A stretch of 32,542 bases of DNA. Source: an uncultured Caulobacteraceae bacterium. Lineage in GTDB: Bacteria; Pseudomonadota; Alphaproteobacteria; Caulobacterales; Caulobacteraceae. The notes beneath the pieces were generated by a model that saw only the letters and a program-made list of their open reading frames with translations, searched no databases and was not told where the DNA came from. Shown here in pieces: positions 1-32,542 of this stretch. Location: contig CAXTRP010000001.1 of assembly GCA_964246615.1 (NCBI GenBank), positions 1-32,542 on the forward strand, read 5' to 3'. Made by a program: the position numbers and the translations under genes. Positions within the stretch are counted from its first letter, which is position 1, and each line of letters starts with the position of its first letter.

Positions 1-1976
1 CTCTCCGCGAGCGCGCCCTCGATCGCGGGCGCCGTCTGCCCGAACGCGGCGACGCGCATGCTCCGCGCCGTCCCCAAGCCCAGGATCCGGGTGTTGCGCA
101 CGAACGTCACCTGTAGCCCATCGACCGCCGCCGCCCTGACCAGCTTGGTGGGATCGACCTCCCGCAACTCGCCCTGCTTGGACCGGACCGCCAGGTGCTG
201 GCCGGCGGCGAACATGCCGGGCACGTTCGCCGCGGCCACGGCCGACGCCACGCGCCGATCAATGGTCTGGGCATGCCCATCCCGGCACGTCGCCTCGATC
301 CATGACGCCGCCTCCATTGCACCCAAGGACGGCTTGGCGGCGATCGCCTCACGCCATCGCCTTGATTGCGCCCAGTCGCGCTCCGGGCCGATGACGATGG
401 CCATCACGTCGTCGACCGTCCGGCGGTAATGGTCGATGCACATGCGTGTGGCGGCCGCCGGCTCGATGCCGGTTGCGACGGCGAAGGAATGCTCGATCCG
501 GGCGACGCCCCCGGCCGCCGCGGCCTTGCGGAGGGGCCCCATGGCTGAATCGTATGCGGCCTGGAACGCGGCGGGGTAGGCGGACACGGCATACGGGTCC
601 TCGCGCCCGTCGATCCACGCCGTCCCGCCCGGGGCGGCCGGGAACCAGTGGCTGGCCTCCCACCCTTCCAGGGCGTCCGGCTCGGGGCGGCTAGCCGAGA
701 CCGCCGCCGCCAGGTGCTTGTCGATCACCGCCTGCAGCACGCCCGTCGCGGCCGCCAGGCAATCGCGTCGCAGGCCGGCTGACTGATCCGCGTCGAGGCC
801 CGCCAATGGGAAGGCGCCGGCGTCGTAGTGGTTGACCGGGGCCGGGAAGTGCGGGGCCAGCGTTCCGGCGCAAGCCGCCGTCGGCGTGCGGACGATGCGG
901 GCATCATCGACCCTGCCGTTCCGGACGCGGGCGGCTTCGGCATCGAAGGTCGCGACCACGGTATGGCGGATGCGCTCCACCGTAACCGGGATCTGCCGGG
1001 CGGCCGCCGCCATGCACGCCTGCCGCAATCCCCGCGCCACCTGCGCCGATGCCGGCGAGCCGGCCAGCGCGACGGCGTAGGGTCCCAGGAGGCCGCGGCA
1101 GTCGATGTCCGGAGGGAGGACGACGTCGGTGGCGGCACGCCGCGCCAGCGCATCCGCCAACTGCGCTTGGAGCCTCGGACCGGCCGCCTTGAACCTGGCC
1201 CTGAGCCGATCCTGGAACGCCGCATCGAGGGGCTCGAACCGGAGCGGAGCGAGCTGCTCACCCGGGAGGATGGAGCGCGCCAGCTGCAGCCCGGCGATAT
1301 CGCCCACCCTATCCGTGGCCGCTACCGGCGGGCCGCCCGGCGAGGGCAGGTCCGGGATGGCGGCAAGGTCCGCCAGGCGCCGGACGAGGACGGCGACGAA
1401 CTCATCGCGGTCCTCGATGCAGTGCCGCCACAAGGCCGTCGCGACGTCCGGCATCGGCGAGCCCGCCGCTTGTGCGATCCACCGGCAGTAGGTGATGGGA
1501 GGCGCCGCGGCCTGGGGGAGCACGATCGACCCGGCCGCCTCGACTGCCGCCGTGAGCTTTGCGAAGTGCGCATCGAGCTCGGCCTGCAGGAGCGGTGCCG
1601 CCGCCCGCGCCTTCCCCAGGATCGCTGCCGCGTCAGCGGCCGCCTCCGGGCCGGTCTCCGGGGGGAGCGGCGGCCGGTCCGGTGGCGGATGCAGGGTGCC
1701 CGGGGGCGAGTAGAAGTGGAACAGCGCCGCCTGATCCAGCGTCGGGTCCGACGCCAGCATCGATCTCGTGTAGGCGTGCGTCCGCTCTTGACCGGTCAGG
1801 TCGCGTGGCAGCTCGTCATCGGCCTCGCGGTGGTTGGACGGCGCGATCGGCTGACCAGGCAGTCGTCCCCAGGAAGCATCCACCCCGGGGTTCCCGAGCA
1901 CGAACTCGGCCGATAGCGCGGGCAGCGGCATGACCCCGACGAGCGCGCCCAGCGCAGTGCACCTCAGCCATCGCAT
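1..1976 (-). CDS. Large secreted hypothetical protein, >650 aa, running off the left edge (absent from the ORF track because it has no stop in the window)
   Basis: Manual translation from ATG at 1976 gives MRWLRCTALGALVGVMPLPALSA-EFVLGNPG..., a signal-peptide-like N-terminus, and the frame stays open to position 1. The + ORF 828..1916 is its antisense shadow. Confidence 0.75.
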   Translation of the reverse strand, partial: MRWLRCTALGALVGVMPLPALSAEFVLGNPGVDASWGRLPGQPIAPSNHREADDELPRDLTGQERTHAYTRSMLASDPTLDQAALFHFYSPPGTLHPPPDRPPLPPETGPEAAADAAAILGKARAAAPLLQAELDAHFAKLTAAVEAAGSIVLPQAAAPPITYCRWIAQAAGSPMPDVATALWRHCIEDRDEFVAVLVRRLADLAAIPDLPSPGGPPVAATDRVGDIAGLQLARSILPGEQLAPLRFEPLDAAFQDRLRARFKAAGPRLQAQLADALARRAATDVVLPPDIDCRGLLGPYAVALAGSPASAQVARGLRQACMAAAARQIPVTVERIRHTVVATFDAEAARVRNGRVDDARIVRTPTAACAGTLAPHFPAPVNHYDAGAFPLAGLDADQSAGLRRDCLAAATGVLQAVIDKHLAAAVSASRPEPDALEGWEASHWFPAAPGGTAWIDGREDPYAVSAYPAAFQAAYDSAMGPLRKAAAAGGVARIEHSFAVATGIEPAAATRMCIDHYRRTVDDVMAIVIGPERDWAQSRRWREAIAAKPSLGAMEAASWIEATCRDGHAQTIDRRVASAVAAANVPGMFAAGQHLAVRSKQGELREVDPTKLVRAAAVDGLQVTFVRNTRILGLGTARSMRVAAFGQTAPAIEGALAE

Positions 1977-2041
1977 CCCGTGAGACCCGATGACCCTGGT
2001 GCTCGATGACTGTGGGAGGCCCACGGGGACCGGCGCTGCCG

Positions 2042-2075
2042 GGAGGAGCGCATCCGCGCGGGAACGCGCCCCTCC
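2042..2075 (-). other. 14-bp hairpin capping the GGYNN array (RNA 3' end or processing structure)
   Basis: The minus strand reads GGAGGGGCGCGTTC-CCGCGC-GGATGCGCTCCTCC: 14 pairs including G-U wobbles, with no U-tract. Confidence 0.7.
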
Positions 2076-2138
2076 GCCACACCTAGCCGCACCATACGGG
2101 ACCTTTCCCCGCTGGACCGGACCCCGCCAAGCCTCGCC
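2074..2138 (-). ncRNA. Array of 13 tandem GGY-NN pentamers; putative guide RNA (VIPR-RNA-like)
   Basis: The minus strand reads GGCGA GGCTT GGCGG GGTCC GGTCC AGCGG GGAAA GGTCC CGTAT GGTGC GGCTA GGTGT GGCGG. Ten of 13 units have a perfect GGY and 3 have one mismatch. The array is intergenic, about 90 nt downstream of the RAMP-like gene. Confidence 0.75.
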
Positions 2139-2230
2139 GGGTCCGGCTTCGTAGCGGTCATCGCACACCCCGGGCAACTCGCGCGAAGCGCGTGTCGGAA
2201 CGGCGACCGATGGACCGGCCGTCATCGCCG

Positions 2231-2827
2231 TCACAAGCACTGGCCGCTGCCCGCCGGCATCGGTTCGGCCCAGAACCTACCGAACTTCGGCCGCCAGTCA
2301 CCGAGACCGATCTGCTCGCCGGCGACCACGACGAACCTGCGGATCTCCTGGGGGTCCAGGATCGATGGCAGGTAATCCACCACCAGCTCCGCCGACCAAT
2401 CCGTGAACTTCGGCCTCGTGCGCATGATCCGGCTGCCGCCGACGCGTACCCCGACCCGCAGGCGGAAGCGACCATCCGCCCACAGCGCGGCCGGGTCCGA
2501 TGGACCATCGTAGCGAAGGCGGAGGTCATCCCTCACGACCAGCCCAGCGCGCGCCTTCGCAGCGCGCCTTTCCTGGCCCGCCGCCCTGGTCAGCGACGCC
2601 TCCATCATCTCGCCCGGGATGCAGGGCGAGCCGGAGCTGGTGTACATGCTCCCCAGGAACTCGAGCTCGGCTAGACGAAGGTGGTCCGCCTCAGTCTTCC
2701 GCCGCCGGCCCGCGACCTCCGCAATCGCACGGGCGTGCTCATCCAGTGGATCCGCGAGGCGCCCGGAATGCATGAGCAGGGGTGCGGCGGACGTGATCTC
2801 GAAGCGCAATGACCGGTAGCCGCTCAT
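2231..2827 (-). CDS. Stand-alone Cas7/RAMP-fold-like protein (Vipr-like), 198 aa
   Basis: Starts MSGYRSLRFEITSAAPLLMH, with GAGG upstream. It has PCIPGEMMEASL (cf. the RAMP PxIPGSSLKG motif), RIMRTRPKF-DW, and a C-terminal Gly-rich loop IGLGDWRPKFGRF. Confidence 0.75.
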   Translation of the reverse strand: MSGYRSLRFEITSAAPLLMHSGRLADPLDEHARAIAEVAGRRRKTEADHLRLAELEFLGSMYTSSGSPCIPGEMMEASLTRAAGQERRAAKARAGLVVRDDLRLRYDGPSDPAALWADGRFRLRVGVRVGGSRIMRTRPKFTDWSAELVVDYLPSILDPQEIRRFVVVAGEQIGLGDWRPKFGRFWAEPMPAGSGQCL

Positions 2828-3128
2828 GTTCGCTGCCTCGCTGAACGACTGGGGTGAGTCGGACGACGTCGCGCACCTCAGGGCGCGCAGTGGCGGCATA
2901 TCTTCGCGCCCTGAGGGCGGTGGTGGTGAACGCGTGGCACGGTGCGCACAGCACGGTCAGCGCATCGACGCGATCGCGATCCCATCGGCCGGGCTGCGGA
3001 TAGAACCGATGGTGGACGTCGAGGTCACGCCGGGCGTTGCAGAGCCGGCAACTATGGCCGTCGCGTCGCAGCGCGCGTAGTCGAAGCGCCCTCCAACCCG
3101 GGCTCGCGAGATAGTCCTCGTAGGTCAT
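2739..3128 (-). CDS. Small Zn-binding HNH endonuclease, about 129 aa
   Basis: MTYEDYLASPGWRALRLRALRRDGHSCRLC...LDVHHRFY...LTVLCAPCH carries the CxxC, HH and CxxCH motifs. The 3' end overlaps the start of the RAMP-like gene by 89 nt. Confidence 0.85.
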   Translation of the reverse strand: MTYEDYLASPGWRALRLRALRRDGHSCRLCNARRDLDVHHRFYPQPGRWDRDRVDALTVLCAPCHAFTTTALRARRYAATARPEVRDVVRLTPVVQRGSEHERLPVIALRDHVRRTPAHAFRAPRGSTG

Positions 3129-3232
3129 CGGGTTGCCCCGCCGGATGCGAGCCTTGGCGTCGATCGTCGCCCGCGACACGAGCAGCAGGATTGTCGTTGG
3201 ACATGCATGCGCGTCACCACCCATCACCCGTG

Positions 3233-3246
3233 TCGACTATAATCGA
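3233..3246. promoter_or_regulatory. Near-palindromic operator TCGACTATAATCGA containing a perfect TATAAT
   Basis: It is a 12/14 palindrome between the divergent HNH and XRE genes and resembles controller-protein C-boxes (GACT-N3-AGTC). Confidence 0.45.
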
Positions 3247-3282
3247 TGTCCCGGCTCACGCCAATCGGTGTCCGTGCTGCGG

Positions 3283-3549
3283 ATGGATCTATGTGGACTC
3301 GTTGGGCGGAACGTACGGCGTGAACGCCTGGCGGCCGGTATGACCCAGGAGGACCTCGCTCATCGCACCGGGTGGGACCGCACCTACATCAGCGACATCG
3401 AGCGGGGCATCCGCAATCCGTCGGTGCGCTTGCTGGAGGATGTCGCCACCGCCCTTGGGCTCCACCCCGCGCTGCTCCTGTTCGAGGAGAAAGAGGCAGC
3501 AATCGTACAGGCGGCGTTGCTGGACCCAGCGGATGGCTCTTCCCCTTAG
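3283..3549 (+). CDS. XRE-family HTH transcriptional regulator (controller-protein-like), 88 aa
   Basis: VGRNVRRERLAAGMTQEDLAHRTGWDRTYISDIERGIRNPS is a typical HTH_3 signature. Confidence 0.92.
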   Translation: MDLCGLVGRNVRRERLAAGMTQEDLAHRTGWDRTYISDIERGIRNPSVRLLEDVATALGLHPALLLFEEKEAAIVQAALLDPADGSSP

Positions 3550-3558
3550 CCCAATCCC

Positions 3559-4545
3559 TCAGCCCGCCACCTGTAACACGATCTTCCCCGGCGGTCGGGG
3601 CCGCGTTCCCTCCAACATCTCATGGGCGTCCCGCGCGGCCAGGAAGGGCAGTATGGCGCCGACCCGAGCGGCCAGTTCTCCCGCGGCCATCATTCGCGCG
3701 ACGATATCCAGGCGTTCGGTCGTGACGCCCACCAGGAAGAACCGGGCTGTGACGCCGTGCCCGACCGCCGCCTGAGAGTTTGGTTCCGAGACCGCGGAGA
3801 TCAAGGCACCGCCACGCTTCAGTACCTGGAAGGAGCGCCGCTGGACCTCGCCGCCCACTAGGTCGATCACCGCGTCCATCTCGTGCAGCACACCCTCGAA
3901 GGGTGGTCCCTCACGGGTCAGCACCTCGTCCGCACCCAGGCTGCGGACGTAGTCAGTATCCTTCTCGCCGCACGTCGCCGCCACATGCAGGCCGGCACGA
4001 TGCGCGAATCGCACCGCGAACGCGCCGACGCTGCCGGCGGCTCCATGGATCAGCACCGTCTGCCCTCGCCGCAGCGCCGCCTCCTGGAACAAGGCCTGCC
4101 AGGCGGTGACCGCGATGACGGGCACGGAGACGGCCTCGACGTCGGCAAGCCCTGCCGGCTTGTGGGCGATCATGGTGGCGAAGGCGATCGCATACTCGGC
4201 ATAGCTGCCGGTGAAGCGCGCGTTGGTCACGCCGAACACCGCGTCGCCGGGTCGGAACGATGTCACGCCGGGGCCGACTGCGGCCACCACCCCTGCGAGG
4301 TCGGAGCCAAGCGTCAGCGGCAAGGGCTGCGGCAAGGCGCTTCGGCCGGCCCGAATCCAGCCATCCCACGGCCCGACGCCGGCGGCCGCCACCCGCAACA
4401 GCACTTCGCCGTCACCGGGCTTCAGCGGCCCGATCGTGTCGAAGCTGATGACCTCGGGGCCGCCGAACCGGTGCACACGGCAGGCCTTGCCCGCACCGAG
4501 CGGGATGGTGGTCACGAGTGGCTCGCCAATGGGGTCGCCAGACAT
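3559..4545 (-). CDS. NADP-dependent oxidoreductase (MDR/quinone-reductase-like)
   Basis: Contains FGGPEV, LPLTLGSDLAGVV and the VLIHGAAGSVG nucleotide-binding motif, and ends GKIVLQV. The start could be 4545 or 4602. Confidence 0.9.
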   Translation of the reverse strand: MSGDPIGEPLVTTIPLGAGKACRVHRFGGPEVISFDTIGPLKPGDGEVLLRVAAAGVGPWDGWIRAGRSALPQPLPLTLGSDLAGVVAAVGPGVTSFRPGDAVFGVTNARFTGSYAEYAIAFATMIAHKPAGLADVEAVSVPVIAVTAWQALFQEAALRRGQTVLIHGAAGSVGAFAVRFAHRAGLHVAATCGEKDTDYVRSLGADEVLTREGPPFEGVLHEMDAVIDLVGGEVQRRSFQVLKRGGALISAVSEPNSQAAVGHGVTARFFLVGVTTERLDIVARMMAAGELAARVGAILPFLAARDAHEMLEGTRPRPPGKIVLQVAG

Positions 4546-4890
4546 CGCAAGCTCTTCTTCGATGAAGTGGTGAACGCGATCGTTGCACACTGGACGATCC
4601 AAGGCACGGGCAGATGGATCACCCTGCTCCCCTGTGGTCCTCGATCATGGAGGCCGCTTGCTGCGATCGGTTAGGGGACGCGCGGTCCTCGAGAGGACGC
4701 CCCGGACCGTGATCCGGGTCGCAACGCCGCGTCAATCGTGGTCGAACGGCTTGAGGTTGCCGCGCCCGTTTGACATGTCCTGTAGATATCGCCCGCTCTG
4801 CTAGGCCGGGAAAATTGCATAGTTACGGGATGTTATAGTGCGTCCATGCGTCGGCGCTGCGCTGGCCCGTTGCAACAGGCGAACGGCGGC

Positions 4891-5115
4891 TCAACTCACT
4901 CGGAATACTCCCGTCTCGGCCAACAAGCTAGTCACTACCTCCAACTGCAGCGCCCTTCGCCGATCCGAGAGCACGACCACTGCATGGGAGGTCGGATACA
5001 TTGCGGTATCCTGGTGCACCTCGACCCAGGCGCTGGCCGACTGTTCAGAGACCTTGGCCTGGAAGTCGAACGACGGCTGGTCGTTGTTCCCCTTGGATCT
5101 GTCGCGCTGCATCAA
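4891..5115 (-). CDS. Small hypothetical protein coupled to the deaminase gene
   Basis: 74-aa ORF whose GTG start overlaps the deaminase TGA stop (GTGA). Confidence 0.5.
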   Translation of the reverse strand: MMQRDRSKGNNDQPSFDFQAKVSEQSASAWVEVHQDTAMYPTSHAVVVLSDRRRALQLEVVTSLLAETGVFRVS

Positions 5116-6716
5116 CGTCCTCCCGTTGGGGCGGTCGTGACAGCCGCCCGTTCGATCTCACCCATCTCCTTTGCAACACGCAACTCGTATGCCACGAAGC
5201 TGTCGAGCGGCTGCCGGAAGACTGGTTCGGCGCTCGCCGGATCGCTGGCCCTCGCGTGGCCATCGGACTTGCGCTCCGATCGCTGCCGGAACAGCCGCGC
5301 GAAGTGTTTCGGGGCAACGCCGCCGTATTGCCTGAACAGCGTGCGGTTTTCGCCCCTCGGTTCCTCCGTGAGCGAATCGTGATGCAGCTTCGTCGCCATG
5401 CTCTTCTTGTAAGGTTGGATGAAGACAACTTCGGCGATCCCGGCTGCGACAATGTGCCTGGCGCAGTTGTGGCAGGGATATACCGTCGTGTACAGCGTCG
5501 AGCCGACGAGCGAGTGCCGGCCGTCGCGCGCCACCGCGAGGATCGCCTCCATCTCTGCATGTATGGACCGCGAGAACTCGATGACCCAATCCAGGCGGCT
5601 CCCCCGGATCGCCTCCGCGACCTTAGCGTCTGGGACGTCGTCCTTGATGATCTCTGCCTTGCGTAGATTGCGGAGCAGCTCCGCCCTAATCTCGTCCTTC
5701 TCGTGGTCATTGTGGCAGATCCTCTGGCCGAACCTGAAGCAACGATTGTCGCGGTCGGCGGCACTCCCCTTTGCGTCTGAGCCCCACTGGTCATCCTCGC
5801 CATAGAGGCCGCCGCCAGGCTTGGGAACGTCGTTCCAGCCAACCGATATCAGGTCGCCCTTGGTGTCGAAGATCGCCGCTCCGACTTGGCGCGACATGCA
5901 GGCCGATCGGTGCGCGACCGCGTCCGCCTCGTGCATCGCCTGCTCGGCCCGAGTGGGAGTGTGCACGCCGACGTCGAAGACGATGTCGAGGAATCGATTT
6001 ACCGTGCGAAGAAGCTCCGTGTCGTTGTCCCCGTCGTTGCGGATGAAGAAGTCCGCATCGCCGAACACGGAGCGAGTCTTCTGGCCGTGGGGGATCACCT
6101 CTCCCTGGTCGCGATCTAGTATCGCGCCGGCTCCGGCATCCGACGAGCCGTCCTCCTTCATGCGGCGTAGGCGGACGTAGTCCGGGGCGAACACTCCGAC
6201 AACGACGAGCATGTCCTTGTAGACGTCCCTAAGCAGCGCTAGCTCGGCATCGTTCTTCAGGCTGTCGATGACGCATACCCGGCGCACCCTCGCGGCACGC
6301 GGTGGCGCTTCTCCGCTGATCCTCTCGAGGCCGGCACCGGAGGTCCGGATCTCATTGATCGCTGCCACCGCCCGTTTCGCGAGGTAATCGGGTCCGTGCC
6401 GCTTCCGCAGTTCGTTGCCGATCATCTGGAGCGACTCGATCCGGTCGTTGCCCCGAAGGTCGGTGGTCGGCGACAGGTCCACGAGATGTGCGTCCTCCTG
6501 CAGGAACCGGCTCACCTTGATGATGTTGCCGGCCTCGTAGCGGAAGCGATCGGCGAGGATGTCCCGGATTATCACTGCAGTCTTCGACACGCCCGAGGCG
6601 ACCGGACCGACCATTGCGATAACCAGCTCAATCGACAGGCGCGACTTGATGTCGTCACGCGCATCGTTTTTGTTGGCTGACCCCTCTACGACTGCTGCTA
6701 TCGCCGGATTTCCCAT
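5112..6716 (-). CDS. Anti-phage dCTP/dCMP deaminase (P-loop kinase plus Zn-deaminase; AvcD/Dcd type), about 534 aa
   Basis: N-terminal P-loop-like VGPVASGVSKT and IDSLKN; C-terminal SACMSRQVGA, GWNDVP, SIHAEMEA and PCHNC Zn-binding motifs. The likely start is MGNPAIAA (6716), not 6962. Confidence 0.9.
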   Translation of the reverse strand: MGNPAIAAVVEGSANKNDARDDIKSRLSIELVIAMVGPVASGVSKTAVIIRDILADRFRYEAGNIIKVSRFLQEDAHLVDLSPTTDLRGNDRIESLQMIGNELRKRHGPDYLAKRAVAAINEIRTSGAGLERISGEAPPRAARVRRVCVIDSLKNDAELALLRDVYKDMLVVVGVFAPDYVRLRRMKEDGSSDAGAGAILDRDQGEVIPHGQKTRSVFGDADFFIRNDGDNDTELLRTVNRFLDIVFDVGVHTPTRAEQAMHEADAVAHRSACMSRQVGAAIFDTKGDLISVGWNDVPKPGGGLYGEDDQWGSDAKGSAADRDNRCFRFGQRICHNDHEKDEIRAELLRNLRKAEIIKDDVPDAKVAEAIRGSRLDWVIEFSRSIHAEMEAILAVARDGRHSLVGSTLYTTVYPCHNCARHIVAAGIAEVVFIQPYKKSMATKLHHDSLTEEPRGENRTLFRQYGGVAPKHFARLFRQRSERKSDGHARASDPASAEPVFRQPLDSFVAYELRVAKEMGEIERAAVTTAPTGGR

Positions 6717-7264
6717 CTTGGATAGCTTACATTTGCGGCGCGCGAGATGCCAGCATGTCCGTCGAGTTACGGCAGTCTCACTGCCGGGCGGTTCTGGCCC
6801 GCAACGAAGGTCCGGGCGCGCCATCAACCGGCGGCACGAGGTCGGTGGGTGCCATCGAGTTTGGTGAGGTATCCCCCGGTCGCAATTCTGGTATCGATTC
6901 AACCGGGGGTGCGCCAGCAGGAGGTTCAGAGTCGCCTCACGGCCAGGCAGATCCAGTGGCATGGTCGAGGTCGAGGTAAGTCAGCCACCGGGCGTTCAAC
7001 GCATAGCTCCTGTTGAACGTCACGAAGCCGTTCGCGGCGAACAGGACGCAAGTGACGTTGTTCTAGCCGGCCCAGGCTTCCTTGCTGCCGAGCAGGCATA
7101 CGATCCCAGCCCCTGGGATGCCGGGCGGCTAGCACGCGATCTCGATAGTCGGTGGTGCCGTGTGCTGGATAGGGAGGAACACGTCCATTCAGTTCTTCGG
7201 CTGCGCGCAGCGTGGTGGCTGAGAGCGCGCCCCATCAGTGCAATGGCCCAGCACCAGGCGACGG

Positions 7265-8533
7265 TCACGCGATCCCCTCGTCGCAAAGATGGGCACTTGT
7301 CCACGCTCGGCAGCGTTCCGCCCACTGCGCCATCGCCATGTCGCCGATACGCCGCCCTTGGGCGATGAGCAGGTCCTGCCGTTGCAACATGGCCGCCACC
7401 ACCATGTCGGTGCGGGCTAGGTCGGGTCCATAGGCATCGAGGAAGACGCCGAGCCGGCGGCGCTGCTCCGGAACGGCCTGCTCCGTGCCGCCGAGGTCGA
7501 GCCAGAGCCAGGCGGCGTAGCCGAGATCGTTCGCCCGCGTGCCGGGCGCGGCTGCGTCGAAGTCGATGAGCGCGACCGGCACGCCAGCGCGGAACACGGC
7601 ATTGCAGGGCGACAGATCGTTGTGGCAGACGACCTCGAGGCCGGCACCACTTGCGGCGGGTGCAGCCAGCAGCGACGCAGTGGCGTCGTGGTATCCGCGG
7701 ATCAGCTTCGAGGCGGCCACCAGCACGTCGTCGCCATGGGTCGCGGACAGATCGTCCGGCACCTCTCCTTCGATCCACCCCAGCACGTCGCGCCCTTCGA
7801 CGTCGCGGCCACGGGAAGGCGGGGTGCCGTCGAACCCCGCGGCCTCGAGATGGCGGAGCAAGCGGTGGACCAGGTCGGAATTCAGCGCCGGCAATCGGCG
7901 GACGGTGTCGCCGATGCGAACGACGCCCGGCGTGGTCCGTCCGCCGGTGAGCGGGATCTGCCCGGACCCGAGCAGCTCATGGGCCAGCACGCCCATCATC
8001 ACGTCGTCGTGCCACGCGCCGCCGACGCGGGCGGCGTCCCGCTCTCGCCCTTCCACGACGAAGCCGCAGGCGCGGTAGCAGCGGATGGCGCGCTTGTTGT
8101 AGGCGACCACGCGCAGTCCGACCCGATGCAGCCCGAGCGGGCCGAAGGCGTGCGCCAGCACGAGCCGGACCGCCTCCTGTCCCAGCCCCATCCCAAGCCG
8201 CGCCGGATCGTAGAAGCCGATCGCCAGCCGCGCCCGTCGGTCATGCGAGTCCACCCCGTCCAGGCGCGCTTCGCCGAGTAGCCGACCGTCGTGCTCCACC
8301 ACCCAGGCATGCGGGTGTCGCGACAAGGCTTCCACCCAGCGCGCGGCGTCCGCTTCGGTCAGGGACGGCAATCCGTCCGGGTCGGTCCCGAACATGCGCA
8401 TGATCTCAGGGTCTCTGCCCAACGCGAGCCGGCTCGCGACGTCGTCCGAATAGGGCTGGCGCAACACGACACGTCGCCCGTGCAGCACCGATCCCTCAGC
8501 CATCGCGCCTGGAGCGGGGGGCTCGTTCGTCAT
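7265..8533 (-). CDS. GNAT (RimL-type) N-acetyltransferase fused to an APH-family phosphotransferase
   Basis: The N-terminal half has GMGLGQEAV...NKRAIRCYRACGF..EG. The C-terminal half has CHNDLSPCN (Brenner motif) and LIDFD. It is one uninterrupted frame; the start is 8533 or 8503. Confidence 0.85.
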   Translation of the reverse strand: MTNEPPAPGAMAEGSVLHGRRVVLRQPYSDDVASRLALGRDPEIMRMFGTDPDGLPSLTEADAARWVEALSRHPHAWVVEHDGRLLGEARLDGVDSHDRRARLAIGFYDPARLGMGLGQEAVRLVLAHAFGPLGLHRVGLRVVAYNKRAIRCYRACGFVVEGRERDAARVGGAWHDDVMMGVLAHELLGSGQIPLTGGRTTPGVVRIGDTVRRLPALNSDLVHRLLRHLEAAGFDGTPPSRGRDVEGRDVLGWIEGEVPDDLSATHGDDVLVAASKLIRGYHDATASLLAAPAASGAGLEVVCHNDLSPCNAVFRAGVPVALIDFDAAAPGTRANDLGYAAWLWLDLGGTEQAVPEQRRRLGVFLDAYGPDLARTDMVVAAMLQRQDLLIAQGRRIGDMAMAQWAERCRAWTSAHLCDEGIA

Positions 8534-8627
8534 TCCACTCGGCCGTGATGCAACGTGGCGCCTCCAGCAATCGGTGTGTCGAAGCGGCGTCTGGAGCGGA
8601 CTGTCAACCCGGTGTTGAATGTGCGCC

Positions 8628-10109
8628 ATGGACCGGCGACGCATCATCTGCACCGTTTTCGCGATGCTTGCCGGCGCCTTGTCGCCGGGGACGGCTGCAA
8701 GGCCGGCACACGCTGCGGAGACACCGCACTTCGAACCAACCTCGTGCGGCGGCTTGCCCGATGTCGCCGATATCCTGTCCCGGCTGCGCTGCGGGGTCGT
8801 GCGAGTGCCGCGAGACCACGCCCACCCGGAGGGCCCGACCTTCTCCCTGGCGGTCGTCGTGGTCAGGAGCGAACGGCAGCCCGTCCATCCCGATCCCGTC
8901 TTGTACATCAGCGGCGGACCCGGGGCACCGCTGACCGTCTTCACGGGCTTCCAGGCACGCCACCCCTACGCCGACGACCGCGACCTCATCCTGGTCGACC
9001 AGCGCGGCACCGGTCGCTCGGAACCGCGTCTCTGTCCCGACCTCCAGCGCGATCTCGTCACCGCCATGCTCGGCGTCGCGGCCGAATCGACGCCGGCCAC
9101 CCTGGCTGCCGACGGTGCGGCTCACGCCGCCTGCCGAGGCGAGCTTGCTGCCCATGGCGTCGATCCGGACAATTTCGGCACCGCCGCCACCGTGGAGGAC
9201 TACGAGTGGGTACGGCGCGCGCTCGGGGTGGCACGCTGGAACGTGGTCGGCGAAAGCTACGGGACGACGGTGGCCATGACGCTGCTCGCACATCACCCGG
9301 ATAGCATTCGTTCGGCCGTCCTCGACAGCCTCAACCCACCCGATGCCTTCTTCGGCATGTCTTGGTCGATGCGGGTGTCCCAGGCACGAGACGCATTATT
9401 GGCGGCATGCGAGGCCAACCCAATCTGCGGAGCGTCCTATCCGGACCTGGCCGGTTCCTACCGACAGGCCGTGGCAAGGCTGGCACAGGATGCACCCCTC
9501 GTTCCCTTGCCAATGGGCCTGCATGTGCCGGGTAACCGCGTGCGGCTCAGGCCGTCGCTGTTCGAGGAGGTGGTCGGCCGGCTCGTCTACTACCCTCCCA
9601 GCCATGCCGGGCTGCCCCGCCTCATCACCGCGACCCACGATGGCGACCTGCAGCCGGTCGGCTCGGCCCTCGCGACCTTGCTGGAAGGCGCGGAGCGGAC
9701 CGGGAACGAGGGCGCGTTCGTCGCCGTCGAATGCCGCGACCGACCGCACTGGCGCGAGCCGGTTGCCCCGGATGCGAGCCCGCTGGACCTCGCGCTGTTG
9801 CCGCCGGGTGCCTGCGCCGCCTGGTCGGCGCCCGGACCCGAGCCCGACGTGCCGCACGACACGGCCGTGCCGACCTTCGTCCTTGCCGGGCAGTTCGATC
9901 CCAACATCACGCCTCGGCAGAGCCGCCGGGTGGCCGACCGGATCGGCCCGCGGGCGCGCTGGCTCCCGTTCGCCGGGATCGGACACAACGTCCGGCATTT
10001 CAGCCCCTGTGCCCAGACGCTGGTGGCGGCGTTCATCGCGCGGCCCGATCGGCAGCTCGACACGGCATGCGCGGAGTCGGGCGCCGCTTTCGAGCCGCCG
10101 CAGCAGTGA
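8628..10109 (+). CDS. Secreted alpha/beta hydrolase (TAP/tripeptidyl-peptidase-like)
   Basis: Has a signal peptide, SGGPG, DQRGTGRS, the GESYG nucleophile elbow, GQFDPNIT (Asp) and GIGHNV (His). Confidence 0.9.
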   Translation: MDRRRIICTVFAMLAGALSPGTAARPAHAAETPHFEPTSCGGLPDVADILSRLRCGVVRVPRDHAHPEGPTFSLAVVVVRSERQPVHPDPVLYISGGPGAPLTVFTGFQARHPYADDRDLILVDQRGTGRSEPRLCPDLQRDLVTAMLGVAAESTPATLAADGAAHAACRGELAAHGVDPDNFGTAATVEDYEWVRRALGVARWNVVGESYGTTVAMTLLAHHPDSIRSAVLDSLNPPDAFFGMSWSMRVSQARDALLAACEANPICGASYPDLAGSYRQAVARLAQDAPLVPLPMGLHVPGNRVRLRPSLFEEVVGRLVYYPPSHAGLPRLITATHDGDLQPVGSALATLLEGAERTGNEGAFVAVECRDRPHWREPVAPDASPLDLALLPPGACAAWSAPGPEPDVPHDTAVPTFVLAGQFDPNITPRQSRRVADRIGPRARWLPFAGIGHNVRHFSPCAQTLVAAFIARPDRQLDTACAESGAAFEPPQQ

Positions 10110-11011
10110 GGCCCGCCGCGCACCTGCTTCTAGGACGGCTCATCACCGCCGTCGTTCAAGGGAACGATGTCCTTTCGGATGCCGCGACCCCCGTGCCCTG
10201 GTGGAGCTACGGGAAGACCGTGCTCGCGAGTGCCGCGCTGGCCCTCGTGTCCCAGGACCGCTTGCAGCTCGACGAACCGGTCCGCGGCAGGCCGTTCACG
10301 CTGCGTCAGCTCCTGGGGCATCGCGCCGGGTTGCGCTGTTACGGCACGCAACGCGCCTACCATGCCGCCGTAGCTGCAGGTGAGGAGCCTTGGTCCGCGG
10401 AGGACATGCTTCGGCGGATCGATGTCGACGCCCTGGCCTATGACCCGGGTCACGGCTGGGGATACTCGAACGTCGGCTACCTCCTGGTGCGCGACCTGAT
10501 CGAGACCGCGGCCGGATCGCCACTGGGTCCGGCTCTGCAGCACCTTGCCTTCACGCCGCTCGGCATCTCGGGCGTCGCGGTCGCCCGGGAACCCGCCGAC
10601 CTGGACGCGACCGCATGGGGCAACGTCCAGCGCTACCATCCGGGTTGGGTGTATCACGGGCTGCTGGTCGGACCGCTGGAGGCGGCCGCGCTGTTCCTGC
10701 ACCGCCTGCTCGCCGGCCACCTCCTGGCGCCCGACATGCTGGTTGCGATGCGGGAGGCGCATGTGGTCGGAGGTGCGATCGCCGGGCGGCCCTGGACGAC
10801 CGCCGGCTACGGGCTCGGCGTGATGATCGGACAGGGCGAGCCGCCGGGCGAGTACATCGGGCATACCGGCGGTGGACCCGGCAGCACCTCGGCCGTCTAT
10901 CAACGCGCCGATCCCCCGGCCAACGGGAGCCCTCGATGCACGGCCGCGGCGTTCGCGCCGCTAGACGACCCCGGGGTGGTCGAAGCGCGGGCCATGGCGC
11001 TCGCCGCGTAG
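10106..11011 (+). CDS. Serine hydrolase, beta-lactamase (class C)/D-Ala-D-Ala peptidase family
   Basis: SYGK (SxxK), YSN and GHTGG motifs are present. The GTG start overlaps the upstream TGA. Confidence 0.85.
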   Translation: MRPAAHLLLGRLITAVVQGNDVLSDAATPVPWWSYGKTVLASAALALVSQDRLQLDEPVRGRPFTLRQLLGHRAGLRCYGTQRAYHAAVAAGEEPWSAEDMLRRIDVDALAYDPGHGWGYSNVGYLLVRDLIETAAGSPLGPALQHLAFTPLGISGVAVAREPADLDATAWGNVQRYHPGWVYHGLLVGPLEAAALFLHRLLAGHLLAPDMLVAMREAHVVGGAIAGRPWTTAGYGLGVMIGQGEPPGEYIGHTGGGPGSTSAVYQRADPPANGSPRCTAAAFAPLDDPGVVEARAMALAA

Positions 11012-11042
11012 GGGACAGCTCGCGGATCGGGCTGACCACGAC

Positions 11043-12716
11043 TCAAGAGGCGGCAGATCCGGCTTCCGGCGAAGCGGCGTCTCCGGCCAGCACGTCTGCC
11101 ACATCCTCGGAGAACGGGAGGACCCTTCCGTCGATCAGCATCCGATCCGGACCGGATGGGTCGCGCTCCGCATTCGGGAGCCCATGGGCGACGAGCACGC
11201 GGGCGCACCCAACCCAGTCCGGGTCGACCACACCGGACGGCTCGTTGACGCAGGCCCAGGACAGGGTGCCGAGCACGTCGCTGCCGAAGCCCTGCCCTTC
11301 ACGCCAGCTGGCACCGTGTGCGAGGAGGAACGCCGTCAACTCCACCCCGCCGCGGAACACGGCCAGGTTCAGCGCCGTCGCGTCCCAGTCGCCGCCGCGG
11401 GCGGCCACTGGCCAACCCAACTCGACCATGGCCCGTGCCGCCGCCGGGGAGCCCCATGCGACCGCATCGGGCAGGAGGCGGAGCCGGTCGGCAGGCAGGG
11501 AGGCGGGCAGGTCCGGTCGCCCGGCCTGTATGCGGCGCGCTTCCACGATGTCGCCCCGGGCGCAGGCGGCGATGAATGCCTCGTCCTCCGTCAGCGCCTC
11601 CACCGCCCCGGCAGTCTGGAGCATCGCCGCGACCTCCCTCAGCCCGGCCTGCATGGCGAGTTGGTAGGCGCCGATGCCGCCCGGGGTGCGCGCCCCTGTA
11701 TCGGCGCCGGCCGCCAGAAGCGCGGCGACGTGGCGAGGCGAGCACCGTATCCCGATCGCGCGCAGAAGCAGGGTGCCCCAGTCGCGTCGGACCGCGCCGC
11801 CGACCGGCTCGTTCGCGTTGCCGCCGTTGGCGAGCAGCAGTTCGAGGGCTATCGGGCTTTGCATGTCCAGCGCACGGCCGAGGGCGTTGGTGCCGCCGAT
11901 CCGAGCGCCGCGCCGTAACAGCAGGCGCGTGCACTCGGGGTTCTCCAGCGAATGATAGAGCGACTCGTTGTCGTTCGGGTCGGCGCCGGCGTCGAGCAGC
12001 AAGGCGGTGAGGGCCGGGTCACGGCCGACGCCGGCGGCGCCGTAGAGCGCGGACAGTGGCCCATCCTCGTCGGGCGCGGCGAGTGACGCCGGCGGGAAGC
12101 GGTTGAAGATGCGCCCGTTGGGGTCGGCGCCCGCCCGGAGCAGATGGTGCGCGCAGCTGAGGAGACCCTCCCTGGTTTCCGGCAGGCGGCCCAGGCGGGA
12201 GTGCGTGACCGCGACCAGCGGCGGCAGGCCGAACGGTCCGCCGGCGCGCACCACCCACGAAGGGTCCGCGGCGACGGCACGCGAGAGGCCGTCGAGCCGC
12301 CCGGCCGCGCAGGCGACCCAAGGGTCGTCGGCCAGGTCGGGCGTCTCGCGCAGCATCCGCTCGGCAAGGCCAGGGCGGGCGGCGGCAAGACTGCCGGTCA
12401 CATCGCCGCCGTACGCCAGCCCCAACCAGCGCCGGATGGCGGTTGCCCGGTCGCCCCGTGCGAGGATACGAGCTTCCACTTGCAAGGTCAGTTCGGACCA
12501 GGATGGAAAGCCGTACTGGCGCGCCAAGCAGGATCGTGCATCGTGCAGGCGTAGGTCGAGCGCAGCGATCCGGGCATCCGAGAAGCCCGATGCGGCCGGC
12601 AGGAACTGGGCGAAGCGGGCCAGCGCGAGCGGATCGCCCGCGCGGGCAGAGCGGAGCAGGTCCTTGGCCTGCTTCCTCAGATGGTCGAGATTGGCCCGAT
12701 CGGGCAGCGTGTCCAT
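11043..12716 (-). CDS. Ankyrin-repeat protein with an N-terminal LPDRANLDHLRKQAK...ARQYGFPSW helical domain
   Basis: Repeated LLxAGADPN, SALYGAA and TALNLAVFRG ankyrin units; GGAGG RBS. Confidence 0.88.
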   Translation of the reverse strand: MDTLPDRANLDHLRKQAKDLLRSARAGDPLALARFAQFLPAASGFSDARIAALDLRLHDARSCLARQYGFPSWSELTLQVEARILARGDRATAIRRWLGLAYGGDVTGSLAAARPGLAERMLRETPDLADDPWVACAAGRLDGLSRAVAADPSWVVRAGGPFGLPPLVAVTHSRLGRLPETREGLLSCAHHLLRAGADPNGRIFNRFPPASLAAPDEDGPLSALYGAAGVGRDPALTALLLDAGADPNDNESLYHSLENPECTRLLLRRGARIGGTNALGRALDMQSPIALELLLANGGNANEPVGGAVRRDWGTLLLRAIGIRCSPRHVAALLAAGADTGARTPGGIGAYQLAMQAGLREVAAMLQTAGAVEALTEDEAFIAACARGDIVEARRIQAGRPDLPASLPADRLRLLPDAVAWGSPAAARAMVELGWPVAARGGDWDATALNLAVFRGGVELTAFLLAHGASWREGQGFGSDVLGTLSWACVNEPSGVVDPDWVGCARVLVAHGLPNAERDPSGPDRMLIDGRVLPFSEDVADVLAGDAASPEAGSAAS

Positions 12717-12881
12717 GGCAGACCTCCGTGCGTTCGATGGCCGAAGGTCCGCAATACCGGCAGCACAAAGGTGGGCGCTGGGTTAGCTCGAGAGTGACAG
12801 GTGGGTTCAACCCTTTCCGCGGACCCGGAGGCGGCCTGCACCGCAGCTAAGACGGTAGAAGCGACCTGACATTATAGTCAA
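12717..12881 (-). promoter_or_regulatory. Putative sigma70 promoter and structured 5' leader that sequesters the RBS
   Basis: TTGACT-N18-TACCGT on the minus strand (12881-12852). Complementary blocks are 12826-12839 with 12718-12728 (covering the SD) and 12818-12825 with 12746-12753. Confidence 0.5.
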
Positions 12882-12952
12882 TGGTCCACTCGAAGGCCCC
12901 AAGATTACGAGCGTTCGCCTCCGAACACTCCATCGGTCACCGTCGAGGCACC

Positions 12953-14443
12953 TCAGTAGGTGGCCCGCCGCTTGGCACCGGGACGGCCATGCTCGGCCTG
13001 GAGCGCAAGCCCTTCGGCCCAGATGTCGCGGCCGAACTGAAGATGGAGGTGCGGGAGATCCGCCAGCGCCCAGCCTTCCGGCTCTGAGCTGCCATCACAC
13101 CGCCAGAACTGCACGGCCCTGAGCGAGACGTGGTCATCGTAGGGAGCGACCGCGTTCTCGCTCTGCCACAGCCGCGCGCGGAAGGCAGGCCATCCGGCCG
13201 CTGCGACGTATGCTCCGTCGCATATCGTCGCCACGCCAGGCGTGGGCAGATATCCGCCCGACATGCCTGCCCGCTCCAGTTCGTCTGACGTCAGACAGCA
13301 GTAGCCGCCTCCGCGCCGGGTGCCGATGCCCCCCGGCCCGTACCACATCGTTCCGGCAGATCGGAATACGTCCGTGCGGTCGTTGCTGAATGCGGAGTGA
13401 TCCGGGACGCTGGCTGCGTGCGACAACATCGAGTCCACGCGGTCGAGTGCGCATCGTGACAACGCCGCCGACTGGCCGTGGACCAACAGCCCGTCCTGGG
13501 CCGCCGGCCCCGGGCAGTGTCCCCGAAGTCCTAGACCAGGTGGGATCGGGCACGCCCCGGCCTGCATGAGCAAGTCGATCATGTCGAGGATCACGTGGCT
13601 GCCGACGATGCGTCCGCGTTCTATGGCGTGGATCTCACCGAACCGCAGGCGCACCAGGCCGACCGGCTCCAGGCCCCAGAGCGGGTAGAACATTTTTCCC
13701 TGGTAGTATCCCGTCGCGGCGATCCAGTCCCGCCCGCCCGAGCGTCCGCCCATCAGGATGTCGTCGCGACGCGTCAACCCCGGCATCGCCTCCTTCAACG
13801 GGCGCCAGAATCCGCAGATGATGTCGTCGTGGCCGTTGAGCGTCCCGACCGGGTGCGAACACGACAAGGTGGCGCCTTCGGCGTAGAGGGCTTGGATGCA
13901 ATCATCAGCGGCATGGCCGTCAGTCAGCGCGGCCTCCCGCAACCCCTTGAGGATGCGGCGCTTCACGACCGCTGGTTCATGGTCCTGCATCCTCACCGGC
14001 GGCAGGAACCTGCCCCTTGGGTCGTCGTCGTCCGTGCCATCCGCATCGACCGGCACGGCCTCCGCGGCGAGCAGCGACCGATACCCGCGCACGGCACCCC
14101 GCTTCGCAGCGGCGACCAACGCGGCGTGGAACGGGTTCCAGGCGGATTCGACGTCGGCTGCACCCAGCAACGCCTCGAACTCGGCCTTCGGAAGCGCGAG
14201 GGCTTCATCGACCATTCGCCGCGGGGCGTAGCGCTGGAGGAACTCGGTCAACTCCCGGCCATCCGCCGGGCGCCACTTGAACTGCGACAGGTCCCCTTCG
14301 TGAATCGCGTGGAGCGCGCCGTCGGGTTTCGGCCATGGATAGCGGTCCCGTCGATGGTCCAGGAGGACCTCGGCTTCCTCGGCGTCCGAGATGGCCTCCA
14401 TCTCCGCCTCCCCGCCCAGGACCTTCGTTCGATCTGCATCCAT
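12953..14443 (-). CDS. SnoaL-like/ester cyclase (NTF2-fold) domain protein with an extra N-terminal domain
   Basis: HPVGTLNG...FWRPL...RRDDILMGG...WIAATG...LRFGE and MWYGPGGIGT motifs of the tandem SnoaL family; GGAGG RBS before ATG 14443. Confidence 0.7.
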   Translation of the reverse strand: MDADRTKVLGGEAEMEAISDAEEAEVLLDHRRDRYPWPKPDGALHAIHEGDLSQFKWRPADGRELTEFLQRYAPRRMVDEALALPKAEFEALLGAADVESAWNPFHAALVAAAKRGAVRGYRSLLAAEAVPVDADGTDDDDPRGRFLPPVRMQDHEPAVVKRRILKGLREAALTDGHAADDCIQALYAEGATLSCSHPVGTLNGHDDIICGFWRPLKEAMPGLTRRDDILMGGRSGGRDWIAATGYYQGKMFYPLWGLEPVGLVRLRFGEIHAIERGRIVGSHVILDMIDLLMQAGACPIPPGLGLRGHCPGPAAQDGLLVHGQSAALSRCALDRVDSMLSHAASVPDHSAFSNDRTDVFRSAGTMWYGPGGIGTRRGGGYCCLTSDELERAGMSGGYLPTPGVATICDGAYVAAAGWPAFRARLWQSENAVAPYDDHVSLRAVQFWRCDGSSEPEGWALADLPHLHLQFGRDIWAEGLALQAEHGRPGAKRRATY

Positions 14444-14635
14444 GGCGGCGTTCCCTCCCGTATGGCGACGTGCCCGAATCAGCACCAATGTTCATGATCT
14501 GTGCATGCGGCCCGTGAGATCGGTAGCTCCTTCGTGGAGGCCCGGCCTGCGGGCGGTGAGCACGCGCGCCGCGTCTGCACGGCGGTGCGGGCGGCGAACC
14601 GGGGATCGAAGCGGGAGTGGTCAGGTGGCGGTAAG

Positions 14636-14866
14636 TCACGTGAACCACGCGAGGACCTCGTCGATGGACCGGCGCACCACCACAACCCGGCCGCCGGTCA
14701 GGTGCATGACTGTGGCGTCGCCCGCGTCGTCGGCGTCGGACAGGGCCAGCACGGCTCCCGCCTTGACCGCATGGCGCAGGCCCTCATCGTCCCGGAGCAC
14801 GAGGAACCCACCCACGCGCTGGCCCGAGATGATGTCAACCATCGCCGCCGCACCCCAATGGGTCAT
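14636..14866 (-). CDS. Small hypothetical protein (about 68-76 aa)
   Basis: Beta-rich, protein-like sequence with GC-typical codon use; a decayed paralog lies at 23769-23940. Confidence 0.7.
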   Translation of the reverse strand: MTHWGAAAMVDIISGQRVGGFLVLRDDEGLRHAVKAGAVLALSDADDAGDATVMHLTGGRVVVVRRSIDEVLAWFT

Positions 14867-14999
14867 GATCGATCGATGTCATGGTTCGCCTCCTGATCGG
14901 GTCATTGCCCGAAGCTGCGCAGCTGCGACGCCGTCGATCGGATCGTCGTGCGCGTCGCGGAACCGGGCTTGCCAGCCGGTCGCACCGCGTTCGCGTCGC

Positions 15000-15731: not shown

Positions 15732-15853
15732 CGGACCCTCCCTGGGGGACGCATTCCCCCTTCCGGATGGTCGATGGCCGACCCCCACCGATCGCGGTTG
15801 GCCAAGCGCCCGCGCCATGGTCTGTTGTCGGAACGATGGAGCGGCGTGGATCG

Positions 15854-21814: not shown

Positions 21815-21892
21815 AGGGTCGTTGACCGCGCTGGACCGCATCGAGGCACAAGAGGCTTGCTTGCCGAAGCAATTTCCAGGACCGCATCGGGA

Positions 21893-27370: not shown

Positions 27371-27371
27371 C

Positions 27372-29459: not shown

Positions 29460-29578
29460 CTCGAATCCTCGCACGAGGAGTATCGGCACCAACCCAGCGG
29501 TTGCGCCGATCTCTCGGATTGCCTAGGTTCGAGCGAGATCTCCGGGTCCAATCGGAATCCTCCCTCGCCTAGGGATGC

Positions 29579-30980: not shown

Positions 30981-30981
30981 G

Positions 30982-32316
30982 TCAAGCTCCCCCGGCCGCG
31001 ACGGGGCTCCCGCCACCGGGCCGCGCGGCCGCCACCAGTTTGTCGACGAACGCGGACCACAACTCGAGCGCGCCCCGCTTCTCCGCGAAGTATTCCCACA
31101 GGTCATAGACCGTGTCCGTCACCGTGCGGGGGGCGTGGTCCAGGATCTTGGAGATGACGTGCTTCTGGACTCCGAGGCGCCCGAGGTTGGTCGCACACGA
31201 CCTGCGCAGGTCGTGGATCGTCCACGCCGGCATCGGCCCGCTCCCCCTCGCCTCGCGTGCGGTGGCGATGAGCGCGTCCACGTCGCGCTTGGCTTTCGAG
31301 TACCCGCTGATCGAGGTGGAACCGTTCGTCGTGAAGACGAATTCAGCGAGGCCGCCGCCGGGCGCGGAGCAGCGCGGCACTGCCTGGATCATGGTCGCGA
31401 CCTTCACGGGAATCGGCACCGCGCTCCGCCGCTTCATCTTCGTCAGGTTCATCCAGACCGACGCATCCATGTCGAGGTCCGCCCAGCGCATCTGCGCTAC
31501 CTCGGTCCGGCGCTGGCCGAGCAGCAACGCGACCTGCATGAATGTCCCGAACGGGTAGCCGAGGGCGTCCATCGCGGCCCAGGCGTCCGCGATCTCGGGA
31601 TCGGACAGGACGCGCGACCTCTTCTTCTCCTCACCCGGCTTCTCGACCATGGCGCACGGGTTGGCCGGCACCAGGTCCTGGCGGACCGCCCAGCCGAAGA
31701 GGGCGCTGAGAGCGGAGAGCACGCGGTTGGCGGCGATCGGACCGCCCCTCGCGGCCGTTCGCCCGCCGGCACGGGCGGGAACCTCGCCGGACGCCACCGC
31801 CATCACGAGCGTCCTGACGTCCGCGCGCGTGATCGATGCGATGGGACGGTCGCGCCAGCGCGGCAGGACGTGGTTGTCGAGGTTGCGCCGCGTCTCCGCC
31901 GCATAGCGCGGCGACGGCTTCTTCCCCTTCCGCACCGGCATGCCGCCCGACATGAACGATTCGACAGCCGCGCCGAAGGTCCGGGCCGCTGCCGCATCCG
32001 CGGCGTGGGCCGCCTGCGAACGGGTGGCCGCCGGATCACTCCCGGACGTGAGGGCGACCTGCAGGTTCCCGGCCTCCCTCCTGGCCGCCTCGAGCGACAC
32101 CTCGGGGTATGTGCCGAGCGTCATCCGCACCTGCCGCCCGGCGTCGCGTTCGCGATAGTAGAACATCCAGGTCTTACGCCCGCGGGGATGGCGCCCGGTC
32201 GGCAGCGCGACGCGCAACCCGAAGCCGGGGAGCGTCGCGTCGTAGTAATCGGTCCGCCGGCCATCCCGCGCCTGGAGGCGCTGCACGGCCGCGTCCGTCA
32301 ACCTCAGCCTCGGCAC
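30982..32316 (-). CDS. Tyrosine integrase, P4-like, with an arm-DNA-binding N-domain
   Basis: YYDATLPGFGLRV...KTWMFYY...MTLGTYPEVSLEAAR; catalytic GQRRTE, HDLRR, LDH and VY. Confidence 0.96.
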   Translation of the reverse strand: MPRLRLTDAAVQRLQARDGRRTDYYDATLPGFGLRVALPTGRHPRGRKTWMFYYRERDAGRQVRMTLGTYPEVSLEAARREAGNLQVALTSGSDPAATRSQAAHAADAAAARTFGAAVESFMSGGMPVRKGKKPSPRYAAETRRNLDNHVLPRWRDRPIASITRADVRTLVMAVASGEVPARAGGRTAARGGPIAANRVLSALSALFGWAVRQDLVPANPCAMVEKPGEEKKRSRVLSDPEIADAWAAMDALGYPFGTFMQVALLLGQRRTEVAQMRWADLDMDASVWMNLTKMKRRSAVPIPVKVATMIQAVPRCSAPGGGLAEFVFTTNGSTSISGYSKAKRDVDALIATAREARGSGPMPAWTIHDLRRSCATNLGRLGVQKHVISKILDHAPRTVTDTVYDLWEYFAEKRGALELWSAFVDKLVAAARPGGGSPVAAGGA

Positions 32317-32334
32317 CGCGCTATGTCCGCTCTT

Positions 32335-32481: not shown

Positions 32482-32533
32482 CACCAAACTACGAATCTGG
32501 GGGTTGGAAGTTCGAGTCTTTCCGGGCGCGCCA
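32482..32533 (+). mobile_element. att site: displaced 3' fragment of tRNA-Arg(ACG)
   Basis: CACCAAACTACGAATCTGGGGGTTGGAAGTTCGAGTCTTTCCGGGCGCGCCA contains the anticodon loop CTACGAA, the T-arm and an acceptor end with CCA. The 5' half and D-arm are absent. Confidence 0.88.
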
Positions 32534-32542
32534 GTGATACAG

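Follow-up and report, generated by a model that had tools for sequence, protein, structure and literature searches.

The HNH gene analysed here is almost certainly a conserved accessory (vap) gene of a VIPR system, and the system is very probably of type III, a label reached by elimination from published figure legends. It lies directly before vipr and a single guide array in 32,542 nt of DNA from an uncultured Caulobacteraceae bacterium, the window of this study. The preferred reading, with a probability of about 0.68, is that the product is a VIPR accessory, likely of type III, and a predicted nuclease that would cut DNA which the Vipr-guide filament has marked. Taken as a separate claim, guide-dependent target cleavage is probable. 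The pairing of HNH-domain Vap proteins with VIPR was already predicted in the accessible text of a preprint (Yoon et al. 2026, 10.64898/2026.04.26.720920). This study adds a tail motif that is likely dual-coding, a close relation in fold to Cas5-HNH, and copies in phages.

Table 1. Features of the module and its surroundings in the window
Feature	Position	Strand	Description
3' tail hairpin	2042..2075	-	about 14 bp; shares the last pentamer with the repeat tract
vrRNA repeat tract, single	2074..2138	-	13 pentamers; GG in 11/13, perfect GGY in 10/13
vipr gene	2231..2827	-	198-aa RAMP-fold guide-binding protein; G-loop GLGDWRP
HNH-domain vap gene	2739..3128	-	129 aa; motif reading, profile and model matches
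HNH zinc-binding core			residues 1-79 with C27/C30/C61/C64 and H39/H40/H65
Conserved helix			T69-x3-R73-x2-R76-Y77; typical of Vipr-linked HNH copies
Poorly ordered tail			C-terminal part of the HNH protein, after the T69-Y77 helix
Tail motif copy 1	2847..2882	-	HNH residues 83-94; upstream of the vipr ATG
Tail motif copy 2	2775..2810	-	HNH residues 107-118; inside the first vipr codons, +2 frame
Sigma-70-like promoter match	3236..3264	-	upstream of the HNH gene; 9/12, consensus match only
XRE-type HTH gene	3283..3549	+	divergent
dCTP deaminase defence gene	5112-6716	-	PADLOC dCTPase, E 2.6e-149; in the slot differing from G621
DUF4011 helicase-nuclease	15857-21814	+	PDC-S37/Hhe-like; common to window and G621
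Tyrosine integrase	30982..32316	-	of the carrying element
att copy	32482..32538	+	3' half of tRNA-Arg(ACG); the window ends in the att repeat

The HNH protein

The first-pass annotation had described an HNH gene with CxxC, HH and CxxCH motifs directly upstream of a RAMP-like gene, co-oriented with it and overlapping it by 89 nt. The open reading frames bear this out: the overlap covers 2739-2827, and the 129-aa minus-strand frame (3128-2739) has the motifs C27-x2-C30, H39-H40 and C61-x2-C64-H65. A Pfam scan of the protein gave no match. PHROG HNH families matched with a best E value of 8.3e-10. In the profile search, the best match was the HNH domain of HfmIscB (9k2z, E 4e-10); the Cas5-HNH structure 8yb6 (E 1.1e-7) and the HNH of phage GVE2 (E 9.8e-7) were also found.

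The AlphaFold model (pLDDT 86.8) matched HNH folds. It has a confident core up to about residue 90 and a tail with pLDDT values of 60-70. The top fold match was Cas5-HNH of a type I-E Cascade (8yha; Z 9.3, rmsd 2.5, 73 residues), tied within the margin of the tool with GVE2 HNH (5h0m; Z 8.4). A Foldseek search alone with the model gave nothing below E 0.001. DotN, a non-nuclease use of the HNH fold, also appears among the fold matches.

Across 93 divergent HNH sequences, no variation occurs at W12, C27, C30, H39, H40, Y43, C61 or H65. The features of a beta-beta-alpha-metal core are present, with invariant histidines, zinc-site cysteines, the model and the fold match. Asparagine is the usual middle residue of the H-N-H motif. 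Here it is replaced by Ala56; among the 93 sequences, 61 have Asp, 21 Ala and 8 Asn. A distal histidine after H65 is absent. The asparagine replacement is no argument for inactivity, because Cas5-HNH (8yb6) carries Asp-Leu where Asn-Leu is usual and cuts DNA (PMC10910872). The locus L001 encodes a Vipr of 97% identity; in the 100 non-overlapping codons of its HNH gene, 11 changes are silent and 8 replace an amino acid, none of them at a Cys or His. The protein is apparently intact and of the nuclease type, with a predicted nuclease activity.

Vipr and the guide

Judged from alignment and model, the neighbour of the HNH gene is a Vipr homolog with RRM core, thumb and G-loop. SUSP1 Vipr (PDB 36pp) was matched by the single protein at E 6.5e-23 and by a profile of 34 sequences at E 7.2e-42; identity to the SUSP1 gene is 29%. 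Fold matches of the model (pLDDT 91.6) were Csm3/Cas7 chains, and GxGDWRPxxGRF is invariant in Vipr relatives. Counted on the alignment to 36pp, the SUSP1 guide contacts H17/E71/M72/R138/D177/W178/R179 are kept; H20, E73, R138, D177, W178 and R179 of the window's Vipr are counterparts of RNA-contact residues. The functional residues D177 and R138 are retained. Mutation of SUSP1 K33 is described to abolish silencing (10.64898/2026.04.26.720927). This position is Ala36 here, and HNH-linked Viprs have Ala in 36 and Lys in 63 of 116 cases. A profile comparison found HNH and Vipr unrelated, and a single-sequence protein search gave two distant matches. In the close relatives L074 and L116, the vipr frame is broken, by pseudogenisation or assembly errors.

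The array starts 92 nt past the vipr stop codon, and three of its 13 pentamers deviate from GGY. It is the sole in-phase GG run of at least 8 in the window. The 3.4-Mb genome has four in-phase runs of at least 10; the other three are G+C-rich stretches. At the DNA level, the array has the makeup of a vrRNA, which is 9-16 GGY/NN repeats and a structured 3' tail. The folding of the whole guide plus tail was not better than that of shuffled sequences (z -1.14), and an Rfam scan of window positions 1-5000 gave no ribozyme match, including hammerhead. Relatives have a hairpin of different sequence at the equivalent position. Arrays of close relatives were weak or undetected; a single array was present in 46 of 71 non-viral HNH loci. 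Guide and hairpin are identical to those of L001 (0/100 differences), whereas the preceding spacer differs at 13 of 92 positions. This difference points to selection on the guide.

In many relatives, the array begins within about 30 nt of the vipr stop. Here, the C-terminus of Vipr is slightly extended, and G-rich, pentamer-like remnants lie in the 92-nt spacer (together window 2139-2260, minus strand). The spacer may be the decayed 5' part of a longer guide. Blocks of four pentamers from this guide also occur in the arrays of L075 and L019, a hint of recombination between guides or of common targets.

Targets were sought on viral contigs by five exact-seed scans (29 loci), a procedure in which exact seeds miss most mismatched targets. 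The best candidates matched 20 of 24 NN positions (L230, L235), which is expected by chance after forcing 14-16 matches: the 4 extra matches of 8 have a chance of about 0.16 each. This value exceeds the 80% cut of the Yoon et al. preprint, yet equals the chance level of the seeded search. None of 301 family genomes had a target at up to 3 mismatches. The best site in the own genome (19/26) was not above chance.

Linkage of HNH and Vipr across relatives

Three collection scans provided 224 related loci. From genomes, each of the 64 confirmed loci was taken; metagenomes and viral contigs contributed their 80 best, out of 470 and 394 respectively. With the window these are 225 loci, of which 179 are non-redundant and 165 have at least 450 nt upstream. 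An HNH gene lies directly upstream of vipr in 119 of these 165 loci (window included) and is absent from 46, fractions that favour close kin, as the sampled loci are the best matches to the window's Vipr. The HNH profile was built from first-pass matches in the same loci; HNH matches elsewhere in the 165 loci numbered three. The HNH is present in 7/7 loci at Vipr identities of at least 60% (window included), in 27/27 at 50-60% and in 46/52 at 45-50%. At lower identity, the counts are 25/51 (40-45%) and 14/28 (below 40%). Presence is clustered on the Vipr tree, a quick tree with many open forks.

A gene-neighbourhood comparison had been proposed in the first-pass annotation as a check. The pairing proved conserved, as counted above, and co-diverging: HNH distances and Vipr distances, both taken outside the overlap, correlate with rho 0.54 (n=114; 0/500 permutations as high), in a sample in which kin are not independent. 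The HNH core family is large, with 77,110 clusters at E<=1e-3. Among its best 150 clusters, 58 have the Vipr-linked tail, and 31 of those 58 have the overlap-derived part. This sequence signature sets the Vipr-linked HNHs apart as a subgroup within a common family. A locus search with the single HNH protein gave one weak match, without Vipr.

Transcription and regulation

With a promoter-like site at 3264-3236 and no terminator-like site found in 1900-3700, one transcript for HNH, vipr and guide is plausible. The divergent XRE HTH gene is a possible regulator; 14 related loci likewise have such a gene upstream of the module. A separate ribosome site for vipr is present in 79 of 99 loci with a long overlap, whereas the HNH gene mostly lacks such a site (27 of 97).

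Gene overlap and the repeated tail motif

HNH and vipr overlap by more than 10 nt in 101 of the 119 linked loci, always in +2 phase and over 32 to 350 nt; in the remaining 18 loci, the genes abut or barely overlap. Overlap length alone was rejected as evidence: the frame is open over the first 20 vipr codons in 26 of 32 loci lacking an HNH. The HNH tail of the window has a 12-residue motif that occurs twice, the second time within vipr. A profile of this motif drew exclusively on sequence preceding the vipr start, with the locus to be scored excluded. The median score of copy 2 was +4.5 bits in 82 long-overlap loci versus -2.9 in 16 short-overlap loci and -6.3 in 31 HNH-less loci. In resampling tests, which are not branch-aware and to which RNA-level selection could contribute, copy 2 beats synonymous resampling (z>1.64) in 36 of 82 long-overlap loci versus 4 of 47 others; a first version of the test had given 46/82 versus 7/47. 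After thinning to less than 60% identity, the values are 21/40 versus 5/30 (p 3e-4). The window's own copy 2 has a z of 1.5. A codon pair giving Thr-Pro in the HNH frame is found in 31 of 78 long-overlap loci versus 3 of 43 others. In L022 and L129, which have no overlap, ordinary coding sequence encodes three motif copies at a spacing of 22-23 residues. In most HNHs with a short overlap the motif occurs once or not at all, which counts against its being essential twice. An excess of A before the Pro codon was rejected as a specific signal, as 9 of 27 HNH-less loci show this A.

Selection at the peptide level on the overlapping tail motif, that is dual coding, is somewhat favoured by these comparisons. 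Docking of the tail motif on Vipr is conceivable at slightly less than even odds. A programmed frameshift to an HNH-Vipr fusion is unsupported: the Vipr frame is open for a median of 16 codons upstream (21 in the control frame), and the frequent ribosome site of vipr also disfavours it. Natural fusions of HNH and Vipr (P0147, P0154, P0275) are single-member clusters without the first strand and the G-loop of Vipr and were read as frameshifts. Neither the long vap-vipr overlap nor the repeated tail motif was found in the text of the VIPR papers; their figures or Data S1-S4 may show them.

Carrying element, defence neighbours and phage copies

L001 lies on the complete chromosome G621, which matches window 1-3533 and most of 12903-32539 in the same order. 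In G621, the 3' half of tRNA-Arg(ACG) recurs as a 57-bp repeat at 3,019,979 and near 3,066,200; the repeat bounds about 46 kb that include the VIPR module. The left island end of the window's own genome lies off the contig. The stretch 3534-12902 differs between window and G621 and is a variable slot adjoining the module. Genes at 24170-32316 (minus strand) are an integrase, an AlpA-like excisionase, a large integrase-like ORF (27372-29492) and a primase-polymerase, which form a satellite-like core of the element.

The locus lies in a defence-island setting (Table 1), and type I RM, PDC-S39 and PD-T4-7 were matched in the G621 island. Across relatives, this setting is weak: PADLOC matches at E<=1e-20 occurred in 8 of 29 cellular loci, 6 of them exclusively to an IetA-like model, in a scan of 116 of the 143 listed ORFs that had no control set. 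In six alphaproteobacterial loci (L028, L029, L031, L032, L043, L046), the IetA-like ORF lies within 5 kb of HNH-Vipr and is a possible further partner. A SRAP family gene (window 21893-22552, minus strand) is located in a stretch without a G621 match. Downstream of the guide is a large ORF (window 1-1981, minus strand, cut by the contig end; L256 725-3241; about 840 aa in G621). It had no Pfam, PADLOC or PHROG match and is possibly an unnamed defence gene. The 20 largest repeat families listed for the window include no CRISPR-like family, and the scanned proteins had no cas match.

In the viral collection, 34 of 59 loci carry the HNH. Head, tail or lysis genes lie beside the module in 11 of the 26 viral HNH loci (78 of 104 listed ORFs scanned), and 11 more of those 26 have phage-type replication or recombination genes. 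The loci on viral contigs may be prophages. The first-pass annotation had suggested carriage by an integrative element rather than a phage. This is supported for the present locus by its tRNA-Arg att site and the 46-kb island of G621; it does not hold for the family, given the viral loci with HNH and those beside phage genes. The HNH-Vipr pair in phages was not found in the text of the VIPR papers, though figures or Data S1-S4 may show it.

Discussion

The two-gene unit of vipr and one vap is a minimal VIPR locus. The accessible text of the preprint by Yoon et al. (10.64898/2026.04.26.720920) distinguishes seven VIPR types. Nucleases are predicted there for types III and V alone, and these two types also show enrichment in defence islands and have viruses as targets. 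The preprint names HNH-domain Vap proteins in a legend covering types II, III and VII, and it calls types II and VII DNA-binding. The HNH would mark type III, an assignment by elimination from figure legends (Fig. S21; single guides in Figs. S19-S20) and not from data of those authors. The first-pass annotation had regarded the HNH as a possible recruited effector; as a new recruitment this is superseded, since the preprint already lists HNH-domain Vaps and nuclease types. The locus resembles type III, as far as the preprint describes it, in having vipr, one vap and a GGY/NN guide, a predicted HNH nuclease vap (by elimination), a single-guide architecture without hammerhead array and a defence-island setting. 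It is unlike the emphasis of Yoon et al. on cellular defence islands that more than half of the viral loci (34/59) carry the HNH.

The type II system of SUSP1 (PDB 36pp) has a homologous Vipr with conserved contact residues and a pentamer guide. Unlike here, its vap1 is downstream of vipr, does not overlap and lacks the Cys-His HNH motif. It has four guides and a pseudoknot tail, in contrast to one guide and a long hairpin, and silences without cleavage; the equivalent of its K33 is Ala in the window. The Cas5-HNH Cascade (8yb6, 8yha; PMC10910872, accessible part) shares the pattern H-x-x-Y...E...D-L...LC-x2-CH-x3-T and an HNH that, together with a RAMP filament, replaces Cas3. Its HNH is fused to the C-terminus of Cas5, and its five-gene system uses contiguous crRNA pairing and a PAM, whereas the HNH of the window is a separate gene of a two-gene system. 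The defining fusion in a cas8/cas7/cas6 operon with a CRISPR array was not found here. By analogy, the HNH would most likely work like the Cas5-HNH Cascade, outside the Cas5-HNH family. The HNHs of GVE2 (5h0m) and IscB (9k2z) have the same zinc-binding core. The present protein differs by lacking a terminase or RuvC context, by its clade-specific helix and tail and by its fixed place before vipr.

The VIPR papers, as accessible, describe that each guide pentamer is coated by one Vipr subunit, and that the reading of double-stranded DNA by Vipr involves a one-base skip but no PAM. In the preferred reading, HNH, Vipr and guide would be made from one transcript. Few HNH molecules would meet many Vipr subunits, because a ribosome site is much more frequent for vipr (79/99) than for HNH (27/97). 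The Vipr filament on the guide would mark double-stranded target DNA, and the HNH would dock on this filament via the conserved helix and the repeated tail motif. With nicking or cutting at or beside the bound target, incoming phage or element DNA would be destroyed instead of silenced. A more detailed version is tentative: a PAM-free, RNA-guided DNA nuclease of two proteins (129 and 198 aa) with a guide of near 100 nt. Its HNH would hold on to successive Viprs through D-x-x-R-x-T-P motifs in tandem, of which the first codons of vipr would encode one. The nuclease would be a free-standing version of the HNH-on-RAMP design that is fused in Cas5-HNH, used by phages and host islands.

The best surviving alternative, itself unlikely, is that the HNH fold clamps the filament without cutting or nicks DNA for recombination that rewrites or spreads guides. 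The replaced asparagine, the absent distal histidine and the fold match to DotN agree with a clamp. So does Vap1 of type II, which boosts silencing and is a predicted DNA-binding protein (10.64898/2026.04.26.720920, accessible text). Against this stand H39, H40 and H65, invariant in 93 divergent sequences, and the same Asp-for-Asn pattern in the active Cas5-HNH. For guide maintenance, the pentamer blocks in common with L075 and L019 are set against an identical guide in two strains with differing flanks, where no fast rewriting was seen.

Slightly less probable still is an abortive defence, in which target binding by the filament turns on the HNH for non-specific DNA cutting and so stops the infected cell. 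Such a role has a precedent in the closest fold match, as Cas5-HNH has a target-stimulated collateral cleavage of single-stranded DNA (PMC10910872, accessible part). A separate small protein with a flexible tail would suit it, and both DNA strands run inside the Vipr filament in the triplex (10.64898/2026.04.26.720927, accessible text), which may shield the target. Many copies are, however, located in phage genomes beside structural genes (11/26), where killing of the host would hurt the carrier, and neither a sensor nor a toxin-antitoxin partner was seen at this locus.

A passenger or homing-type HNH upstream of vipr by chance, an alternative named in the first-pass annotation, is very improbable: distant HNH relatives are common without Vipr (0/16 with Vipr within 1.5 kb, in 400 genomes of the order) and some Vipr loci have no HNH (46/165), but the same place in 34/34 loci at 50% Vipr identity or more, the clade-specific tail and the co-divergence speak against it, and the conserved, co-diverging pairing largely refutes it.

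The surprise of the preferred reading is limited, as the discovery preprint had already put forward its general idea. The literature search found no test of an HNH Vap, and the accessible text of 10.64898/2026.10.15.759431 has no mention of HNH or nuclease. According to the structure paper (10.64898/2026.04.26.720927, accessible text), it is unclear how the accessory nucleases and helicases of VIPR react once a target is recognised. The locus offers a small, apparently intact candidate for this question, with H40, the T69-Y77 helix and the two tail motifs as residues for mutation. If the HNH cuts, few programmable nucleases that need no PAM would be smaller, and the system would be a model of the way in which RAMP filaments acquired cutting modules.
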